Shown: positions 6,001-9,000 of the stretch, one piece after another
Position numbering within the stretch: position 1 is the stretch's first letter
Layout of the letters: each line of letters begins with the position of its first letter
Virus record (IMG/VR): IMGVR_UViG_648276650_000002
Coordinates: 1-23,198 of that record
Length of the DNA: 23,198 nt
Strand: one strand, 5' to 3'
From: a virus
Taxonomy: Duplodnaviria; Heunggongvirae; Uroviricota; Caudoviricetes
Made by a program: the position numbers

Positions 6001-9000
6001 TCACCGGCTGGAATCGGGATAAACAGCAGGTGTACTTCACCAGGCAGAATTATCCGCATGAATGCATGCAGCCTGTCTGGAAGTTTCAAAATTATTTCAG
6101 GAGGGTTGTGGAGTGAGCAATTTCTTACAGCTCGTTGATCGTCCAATAGCCTTTCAACGGTCCTTCGTTCGCCTTGGCGTGGGTATTACAGGTGCATTGC
6201 TATTGTCACAGATTGTCTATTGGCAGAACCGCATGGAAGGGAATTGGTTCTACAAAACCCAGACAGATCTCGAAGAAGAGACTGGATTAACGCGTTACGA
6301 ACAAGAGGGAGCGCGTAAAAAGCTGGTTTCCTGTGGCGTACTGGAAGAAGCAAAACGTGGCATCCCAGCAAAATTATATTTCAGAGTAAACCAGGAGCGC
6401 TTGGAAGAACTTCTACTTGGCGAAAACCAGCATGCAGGTATGGGGAAAACCAACAAACAAGGATGCGGAATTTCCGCAAACAGTGATGCGGAAAACCAGC
6501 ATGCAGGTATGGGGAAAACCAACGAGCAGTCATGTGGAAATTCCGCATCCATTCATACAGTAGATTACCAGGAGACTACACAGAAGATTAATACAGAGAA
6601 TAAATATCTTGGTGCATCGGCTGAAGCCGACACACCGAAAGTGAAATCTTCAACTGATTATTCTCCTGCATTTGAAGAAGCCTGGCAGGCATACCCAAAA
6701 CGTAGCGGTGGAAATAACAAGCTAAGCGCATTCAAAGCCTGGAACGCACGTATTAAACAGGGCGTAAAACCAGAGACGATGCTGGAAGGGGTTAAGCGCT
6801 ACGCAGCTTTCATGGCCTCTGAGGGAAAGATCGGTACTTCGTTCGTCAAGCAGGCGGCGACGTTCTTCGGGCCGGATAAACATTTCGATGAACCGTGGCT
6901 GGTAGAGACCCAGGAAAACAAAGTCCCTACCCGACAAGACCAGTCTCGCTACGAGTGGTACGCAAAGTCTGATGACGGCTCTGCCGAGGTGTTTATCAAT
7001 CAGTCAGCGATCGATCGCATGAACCGTGGCGGGTATCGCCCATGAAAATACTCCTCAAACGTCTACTGGTTGCTGGCTATAACCGCGGCTTTTTGCGTGA
7101 GGAATTCGTGACTATGTGCTTTATAAAATTCGATTTACGGAGTGTGTGATGACCCCTGCTGAGTTATCTGAAAAATTGTGGGACAACGCCGAAAGAGTTG
7201 CGAAATACCTGCTTCCACGAGGACACCTCGAGGGCAAGGAGTGGTGCGCTGGTAATACCAATGGTGATGCCGGTAAGAGCCTGAAAATTAATCTCGGTGG
7301 TAAGAAGACTTGGGCAGATTTTGCAAGCGGCGACAGCGGAGACCTGCTTGATCTTTGGGTGCTGGTGCGTAACTGCCAGCTGCACGACGCTATGCGGGAA
7401 GCGAAAGAGTTCCTTGGGCTGAAGGACGACGATAACCACTTCGAGGCGAAGAAAAAAACCTTCTCACGGCCAACCAAAAAAGGCGTTAAAAAGGCGAGCC
7501 ATTGCTACGACTACCTCTCTTCCCGTGGCATCACCCGAGAGACAGCTGATCAATTCCGTGTTTCGGACGCAGTCGTCTGGTACCACGATGAAAACCGCGA
7601 AATTCCGGCAGTGGCGTTTCCGTATCTTCGCAACGGTGAGCTTTTGCAGGTAAAGCGAATCGGCACTGAACGACCAAATGGCAAAAAGTTGATCATGGCT
7701 GAAGCTGATTGCGAGCCATGTCTGTTTGGCTGGCAGGCTATGGACGCGAAAGCTCGCGCTGTTGTGCTTTGCGAAGGAGAGATTGACTGTATGACCTACT
7801 CGCAATTCGGTATCAGTGCTCTATCGGTACCGTTCGGCGGTGGAAAAGGGGCCAAACAGCAATGGATCGAATACGAGTATCACAACCTCGACCGATTCGA
7901 AGAAATTTGGTTAAGCCTCGATAACGATGATGTAGGGCGCGAAGCCGCAAAAGAAATTGCTCGTCGCCTGGGGGAGCATCGTTGCCGCCTGGTAGAGCTG
8001 CCGCACAAAGATATCAATGAATGTCTGACCTCCGGGATGAGCGAGGATGAAATCTGGCACTACTTGGGGACCGCTAAATTCTTCGACCCTGATGAACTCT
8101 GCTCTGCGGGTGATCTCCTTCAGGAAACACTGGATGCATTCGAGCATCGAGATGTTGGATTATTTTCCAGCCCGTGGGATTCGCTGAACAGTAATTTCAA
8201 ATTCCGCGCCGGAGAGCTGACGCTGGTTAACGGAGTAAACGGCCACGGAAAAACCGAGCTGGTGGGACATATCGCCGTCAATGCCATGAGCCAGGGAGTC
8301 CGGGTATGCATTGCCTCGCTGGAGCTTAAGCCTGGGAAAATGTTGGCTCGTCTTACCCGGCAAACCATTTGTAGAAAAAACCCAGAACGTACTGAAATCA
8401 TCATGACTAACGAGTGGTTTTCTGATCGTCTTTGGGTGTTCAAACTCACCGGAACAGCCAAGGCCGATCGACTGTTGGAAATATTTGCCTATGCCAGACG
8501 CCGCTATGGAATCGATCTTTTCGTTATCGACAACTTGGCAAAATGTGGACTCGATGAGGAGGACTACGGTGGACAAAAAGAATTTATCGATACCCTCTGC
8601 GACTTTAAAAACGAGCACAACTGCCATGTTCTGCTGGTAACGCATGCCAGAAAAACAAACGAAGCTGCACCAACAGGGAAAATGGATGTTAAAGGCACTG
8701 GCGCTTTAACTGACATGCCCGACAACGTTATGGCGGTCTGGCGTAATATCCCGCGCGAACTGGCGCAGCGCAAAGCTGAAAGAATGGGGTATGAGAGCCT
8801 TGATAAGGACGAACAGACTGCTATCCAAATGCCCGCTTCGATGATCCGCCTGTTGAAACAACGTGAAGGGGAAGGCTGGATCGGAGACATAGGGGCTAAC
8901 TTTGATTCCCGCTCACACCAGTTTATCGAGGGTGATAAAGGGCCCTTCAATTACTTGGCCGGCAAACAGCAAAGTGAACTTGATATTGAGTGGGAAGCCA

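Follow-up and report, generated by a model that had tools for sequence, protein, structure and literature searches.

The stretch of DNA analysed here (the window) is 23,198 nucleotides long and corresponds to positions 1 to 23,198 of IMG/VR record IMGVR_UViG_648276650_000002, a virus of the Caudoviricetes. Its early region has a lambdoid arrangement, with a rightward early operon that carries, downstream of a cro-like gene, a replication initiator gene of 310 amino acids (aa) with a GTG start (6113..7045, plus strand) and a gene for a primase-helicase with Toprim and DnaB-like/AAA_25 domains (7149..9020, plus strand). Two adjoining arrays of direct repeats lie inside the initiator gene, and the segment that they occupy (6418-6605) is considered here as a probable origin of replication.

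The initial annotation of this DNA described two 69-bp tandem copies of an iteron-like repeat in an "O-like" gene, encoding a duplicated 23-aa linker. Both copies are present (6422-6490 and 6491-6559, 83% identical), and they are in frame, encoding the 23-aa repeat ENQHAGMGKTNKQGCGISANSDA / ENQHAGMGKTNEQSCGNSASIHT. That the repeat is real is clear from codon shuffles of the initiator gene: the array's self-identity at lags 23 and 69 was 0.70 and 0.81, respectively, and neither value was reached in any of 2000 shuffles (null maximum 0.46 at lag 23). The basic unit, however, is 23 bp rather than 69 bp. Each 69-bp copy consists of three 23-bp units, so that the array is made up of six boxes at an exact 23-bp pitch over 6418-6547. 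Tandem Repeats Finder (TRF) reported a period of 23 with 5.3 copies at 6418-6540, and a repeat finder gave spacings of 23, 23, and 23. The six boxes, all on the plus strand, are 15 bp long and share the left part TGnGGAA(A/T): box 1, TGGCGAAAACCAGCA (6418..6432); box 2, TGGGGAAAACCAACA (6441..6455); box 3, TGCGGAATTTCCGCA (6464..6478); box 4, TGCGGAAAACCAGCA (6487..6501); box 5, TGGGGAAAACCAACG (6510..6524); and box 6, TGTGGAAATTCCGCA (6533..6547). Within the window, the box sequences are unique to this array. The near-palindromes previously noted, one per 69-bp copy, are box 3 (palindromic at 14/15 positions) and box 6 (12/15). The boxes are not all dyads, since these two alone are good palindromes. 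A lone terminator-like match in 5400-7300 (6464-6478, minus strand) is palindromic box 3 and nothing more; a promoter scan of the same interval found none, and an Rfam scan found no RNA family in the region.

The more AT-rich stretch that had been seen to follow the repeats (GC 0.40 at 6550-6649, against 0.47-0.49 across the 69-bp repeats) proves to be a second array, consisting of four ~12-mers on the plus strand at 6557..6605 and forming a candidate DNA-unwinding element. The four copies are ACAGTAGATTAC / CAGGAGACTAC / ACAGAAGATTAAT / ACAGAGAATAAAT, their common motif is CAG(n)AGAnTAC, and their CAG starts fall at 6558, 6569, 6581, and 6594 (spacings of 11, 12, and 13 bp). This array begins exactly 23 bp past box 6. 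The lowest-stability 50-mer of the replication genes, 6560-6609 (z +2.67), coincides with it.

Loci encoding related initiators were compared with respect to this layout. The annotated proteobacterial phages comprised 12 records, two of which were near-identical Salmonella phages, leaving 11 distinct ones; their hosts were Vibrio, Pseudomonas, Salmonella, Acinetobacter, Pasteurella, and Aggregatibacter, together with a phage recorded on Synechococcus and a Shiga toxin (Stx) phage. All 11 had the same order, with the part coding for the initiator's N-terminal domain (N-domain) followed by an array with a 22-23-bp period (2.4-8 copies) and then by an array of CAGAGAnTAC or a close variant (2-5 copies). 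The layout was also found in Burkholderia phage DC1, Acinetobacter phage WCHABP1, and Staphylococcus phage IME1348_01. More broadly, TRF gave a period of the 23-bp family in 54/65 distinct IMG/VR segments, with recognisable boxes visible by eye in several others, and the 12-mer motif stood at the equivalent position in two or more copies in 71/76 distinct loci. Staphylococcus, Burkholderia, and Obolenskvirus phages had the motif as well. Lactobacillus phage Ld3 and Flavobacterium phage Fpv8 were without the 12-mer motif and had A-rich tracts in its place. The N-domain of the Staphylococcus phage is only 32% identical, and its locus (L096:1455-1575) reads as 3.2 units of 23 bp followed by ACAGAGATTACT ACAGAGATTACT ACAAAGACTACT.

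The two arrays differ in how they vary. Boxes of type GCGGAAAACCnGCA occur in the window and in Vibrio and Pseudomonas phages, TGCGGAAACCCCGCA in Salmonella phages, types like GCGCCAAAC in Acinetobacter phages, and CATTCCCGAATG in Pasteurellaceae phages, whereas the 12-mer hardly varies across the clades whose boxes differ. It is present in 2-5 copies per phage, about one helical turn apart and directly 3' of the iterons, and is nearly invariant across enterobacterial, Vibrio, Pseudomonas, Acinetobacter, Burkholderia, and Staphylococcus phages while the iterons drift. Downstream of the N-domain and both arrays, at least four unrelated C-terminal domains (C-domains) were found (DUF968/HNHc_6, Phg_2220_C, DnaT-like, and several without a Pfam match), which argues that the N-domain and the arrays form one module recombining with different partner-recruiting domains. 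One locus, L087:1501-3291 (IMGVR_UViG_2548876670_000007), carries an HNH-endonuclease-like insert (CSCCGN...DHVIPLAKNG...HFGCNSSKGDK) between the N-domain and the 12-mers, the usual place of the iterons. This insert may be a homing element within an origin. A Klebsiella protein of the initiator family, P0140, is named "HNH endonuclease, partial."

In the initiator itself, a predicted winged-helix N-domain (aa 1-102) is followed by a linker (aa ~103-165), for which the repeats code, and by a C-domain (aa ~170-300). The whole protein matched phrog_9773, "replication initiation O-like" (1.3e-49), and the N-domain alone matched phrog_9773 (2.4e-43) and phrog_1347 (8.2e-36), placing it in that family; the C-domain matched phrog_26426, phrog_270, and phrog_1701. 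Searches of Pfam (E<=0.01), of NCBIfam, and of PDB sequences gave no usable match to the initiator, nor did the N-domain profile against PDB. An AlphaFold2 model of aa 1-106, built from a 110-sequence alignment, had a predicted local distance difference test score of 91.9 and a predicted template modelling score of 0.84, and it contained three helices and a beta-hairpin wing. Among the first 50 Foldseek neighbours of this model, almost all were winged-helix DNA-binding domains, although the matches were weak (E >= 1e-3); they included, again weakly, the DNA-binding domains of plasmid RepA initiators. On the strength of the model we are confident in predicting that the N-domain is a winged helix. 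The family is extensive, as the N-domain profile retrieved 15,382 clusters at 50% identity (E<=1e-3) from 1.84 billion representatives, including >3,000 strong family clusters. The invariant residues are Q33, Y36, W37, K48, R61, and R68, and the putative recognition helix spans about aa 61-74. Many members of 450-620 aa (e.g., P0241-P0256) match the profile in two separate stretches, and their sequences suggest initiators with two tandem winged-helix domains.

The start at GTG 6113 agrees with the N termini of relatives and with the RefSeq call in E. coli EC2001. Escherichia phage SaltyDalty (PP925825.1) is 99.6% identical to the window over the initiator gene, and its record uses ATG 6062 (327 aa), whereas the relatives and RefSeq use GTG 6113 (310 aa). 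The GTG start fits the conserved N terminus MSNFLQLVDRP; the ATG form would overlap the upstream DUF4222 gene by 55 bp.

Taken together, these features make it very likely, as judged from sequence comparison, that 6418-6605 is the replication origin of a lambdoid prophage, located inside its own initiator gene, where that gene codes for the linker. The initial annotation had named this region as the most likely origin, and that proposal gains support from selection at the DNA level (described below), from a layout that travels with the N-domain, from the low-stability block on the 3' side, and from variation in copy number. As in iteron-type origins, the direct repeats are in tandem, about two helical turns apart, and unique to the segment, and a cognate initiator with a predicted winged helix is encoded alongside. 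Under the mechanism that we propose, the N-domain (aa 1-102) would bind the six 15-bp TGnGGAA(A/T)... boxes, all of which would lie on one face of the DNA because the 23-bp pitch is about two helical turns. The resulting nucleoprotein complex would destabilise the adjoining ~12-mers (6557-6605), and the C-domain would recruit the primase-helicase that the phage encodes a short way downstream. Early transcripts running rightward from the repressor/cro-like control region presumably cross the site, as they do at lambda ori. A common composition for origins is iterons plus an unwinding element that contains repeated 13-mers; these 13-mers are sequence specific, and Rep and DnaA can bind them in single-stranded form (PMC10797057).

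Several observations weigh against this interpretation. That the N-domain binds the boxes is deduced from their co-occurrence only, and shared descent contributes to the similarity of the repeats between phages. Clear palindromy is limited to 2/6 boxes. The interval 5500-9100 contains neither a DnaA box (TTWTNCACA) nor an integration host factor consensus (WATCAANNNNTTR); the closest one-mismatch DnaA box is at 6050, and a scan for GATC clusters found none in the origin segment. Stability falls modestly at the 12-mers (GC 0.40) and is lower still in several intergenic regions of the window. A literature search on this initiator family, SaltyDalty, Aaphi23, and RepA_N origins returned no paper or experiment describing iterons or an origin for the family, and a paper on the replication regions of non-lambdoid Stx phages makes no mention of iterons or origins.

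The alternative that best survives is that the boxes are initiator sites with a regulatory role, such as autoregulating the early operon, controlling copy number by titration or handcuffing, or exerting incompatibility, and that initiation takes place elsewhere, for instance in the very AT-rich intergenic DNA at 4760-4830. Plasmid iterons serve copy control too (PMC10797057), and the least stable DNA of the window lies at 4774-4823 (z 4.7). We nevertheless consider this unlikely. The boxes are always directly 5' of an in-phase, conserved, low-stability block of 12-mers, which is the classic arrangement of an origin, and the cassette of N-domain and repeats travels as a whole between phages, with differing partners. 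The 4760-4830 interval, for its part, has no iteron-like repeats matching the boxes and adjoins a hairpin resembling a terminator, where the repressor gene ends.

A second alternative concerns the 69-bp duplication alone, which might be a recent and neutral product of slippage or unequal crossing-over without significance of its own. Repeat number does vary among homologous prophages, in line with what the initial annotation had anticipated. Two 69-bp copies is the common state, and three were found in E. coli EC2001 and in the 333-aa proteins P0001-P0004 (Enterobacter, Klebsiella). The extra copy in EC2001 is an exact duplicate of copy 1, and genes that are near-identical in other respects include both two- and three-copy forms, which speaks for a neutral event. 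Such an event, however, fits the latest 69-bp step only, given that 2.4-8 units of 22-23 bp occur family-wide, and the copies in the window, while retaining their box cores, are by now only 83% identical. We therefore regard this explanation as quite improbable for the array. The exact 69-bp difference between relatives is explained by the reading frame: 23 is not divisible by three, so the frame is kept only by steps of three iterons (69 bp), which makes the array resemble a 69-bp duplication. The coding frame thus limits how the origin can evolve, as iteron number shifts three at a time only. At two IMG/VR loci the gene is broken within the origin segment. One (L054:1501-2043) has exactly one 23-bp iteron fewer and is frameshifted, with a truncated product of 181 aa, and the other (L067:1501-1854) has an in-frame stop immediately 5' of the 12-mers; these are likely decaying prophages or errors in the assembly of repeats.

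Whether selection acts on the DNA of the segment or on the encoded linker was addressed in three independent ways. Conservation by codon position was calculated from nine relatives, whose N-domain coding DNA is 66-84% identical to that of the window. Third positions were much less conserved than positions 1 and 2 in the N-domain (0.455 versus 0.899) and in the C-domain (0.528 versus 0.793), as opposed to near equality in the iterons (0.853 versus 0.840) and in the 12-mer array (0.852 versus 0.832). The third positions of the origin segment differed from those of the flanking domains (Mann-Whitney p 4.5e-16), and inside the segment they were equivalent to positions 1 and 2 (p 0.42). Furthermore, the repeat steps of 23, 11, and 13 bp are not multiples of three, so the same DNA units are translated in different frames: the 12-mers of the window read as TVDY/QETT/QKIN/TENK, and three exact CAGAGAnTAC copies in Vibrio phage X29 read as TETT/QRLP/ETTT. 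Finally, third codon positions in Burkholderia phage DC1 have a GC content of 0.85 across the gene but of 0.25 within the 12-mer array. Frames, codon positions, and codon bias thus agree that selection is on DNA and not on protein. A purely protein-level explanation, in which a duplicated flexible linker (Gly/Asn/Gln-rich, then Thr/Glu-rich) is selected for length or composition and the DNA has no role, would account for the in-frame 69-bp unit with its 23-aa repeat, for the 12-bp (4-aa) TE.T repeats of most relatives, and for a linker peptide conserved enough to figure in the family profile, but it is scarcely credible when identical DNA units at the 23-bp period and at out-of-frame spacings of 10, 11, and 13 bp specify different peptides, when synonymous positions are as conserved as nonsynonymous ones solely in this segment, and when codon choice in the array contradicts host bias.

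The proposed origin has much in common with lambda ori and with the ori regions of other lambdoid phages. Both lie in the rightward early operon downstream of cro and inside the initiator gene, between the parts coding for a DNA-binding N-domain and a partner-recruiting C-domain. Lambda ori likewise has several boxes within O, spaced at 20-24 bp and in some cases dyad symmetric, and directly 3' of them an A-rich, less stable stretch with a purine-rich coding strand, similar to the low-stability block described here. Lambdoid O genes also recombine as modules with differing partner domains, as the N-domain and arrays do in this family. The differences are in the details: lambda has four boxes of 18-19 bp rather than six of 15 bp, a plain A/T tract downstream rather than a sequence-specific ~12-mer repeat, and a partner that is a P-type loader of host DnaB rather than a phage primase-helicase. 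The label "O-like" holds for the origin layout and only by analogy for the protein, as homology to lambda O was not detectable: the initiator had no Pfam match (E<=0.01), and comparison with lambda O gave no BLASTP alignment of the N-domain and an hhalign probability of 0.2% with the 110-sequence profile. By this analogy, the initiator appears to work in the manner of the lambda ori system without belonging to the lambda O family (Phage_rep_O).

RepA_N plasmids of the pSK41 and pSK1 type carry their origin repeats in the middle of repA, between the N-terminal DNA-binding and the C-terminal host-interaction domains. The N-domain structures of RepA from these plasmids of Gram-positive bacteria (5kbj, 4pql, 4pt7, and 4pta) rank high among the structural neighbours of the N-domain model, with a match (Foldseek E of 1e-3 to 3e-3 and template modelling scores of 0.44-0.60 for 5kbj, 4pql, and 4pt7) that is weak and typical of any winged helix; by sequence, the initiator N-domain matched no Pfam or PDB entry. 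Iteron origins of theta plasmids (RK2 oriV, F, and R6K) resemble the proposed origin in having direct repeats, bound in their case by a winged-helix Rep, and an adjoining array of short repeats, which in the plasmids are ~13-mers of an unwinding element in which sequence matters and a single strand is bound by Rep (PMC10797057). These plasmid origins are, in contrast, intergenic and usually equipped with DnaA boxes, whereas the segment described here is wholly coding and has none, and their Rep has two winged-helix domains where we predict one. In sum, the probable origin is an ordinary kind of element, and its initiator belongs to a family that is very large and unstudied.

The conserved 12-mer is the novel part. 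In the literature, its sequence and variants matched unrelated primers only, and its retention across phages of Gram-negative and Gram-positive hosts argues that it is read by a phage protein and not by a host factor. We tentatively raise the possibility that the CAG(n)AGAnTAC motif represents a sequence-specific origin element not described before, either an unwinding or a helicase-loading site, read by the conserved core of the winged-helix initiator, perhaps as single-stranded DNA. It might then be a phage counterpart of DnaA-trios or of the RK2 13-mers, common to >15,000 protein clusters. The 12-mer offers a concrete candidate for a specific unwinding or loading signal.

The genes around the segment complete the picture of the early region. 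Upstream are an S24-type repressor gene (4889-5578, minus strand), the cro-like helix-turn-helix gene (5672-5917), and the DUF4222 gene (5919-6116). Operator-like palindromes built on TTTAGC...GCTAAA, such as ATTTAGCAAAAAGCTAAA at 5645-5662, occupy the repressor/cro intergenic DNA (5590-5665). The stability minimum of the window lies just beyond the 3' end of the repressor gene, in a region (4760-4860) of short AT repeats adjoining the hairpin GGTGGGcataaaaaaaCCCACC. Between the initiator and primase-helicase genes is a 35-aa open reading frame of phrog_21848, function unknown (7042-7149), whose start overlaps the initiator stop and whose own stop overlaps the primase-helicase start. The primase-helicase matched Toprim_2 (1.6e-11), AAA_25 (5.9e-12), and DnaB_C (3.2e-6) in Pfam and phrog_239, "DNA primase/helicase" (1.2e-146). 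A Q antiterminator gene follows (9330-10166). On its 3' side are three tRNA genes (11351-11424, 11506-11578, and 11585-11656) and a match to the small RNA family STnc100 (71.7 bits), the tRNA and small RNA segments being 11351-11656 and 11878-12070.

Prophages of Enterobacter, Citrobacter, Klebsiella, Salmonella, and E. coli very commonly encode this initiator protein, whose identical sequence was seen on 808 contigs. By megablast, the gene was present in just 1/5426 complete E. coli genomes, and the prophage is mainly an Enterobacter-group element. Our analysis thus places a probable origin in a type of prophage that is very common in these enterobacterial hosts. It also provides a simple sequence rule for finding origins in an initiator family that is very large, uncharacterised, and not covered by any Pfam model, namely a winged-helix N-domain followed by 23-bp iterons and CAGAGAnTAC repeats.

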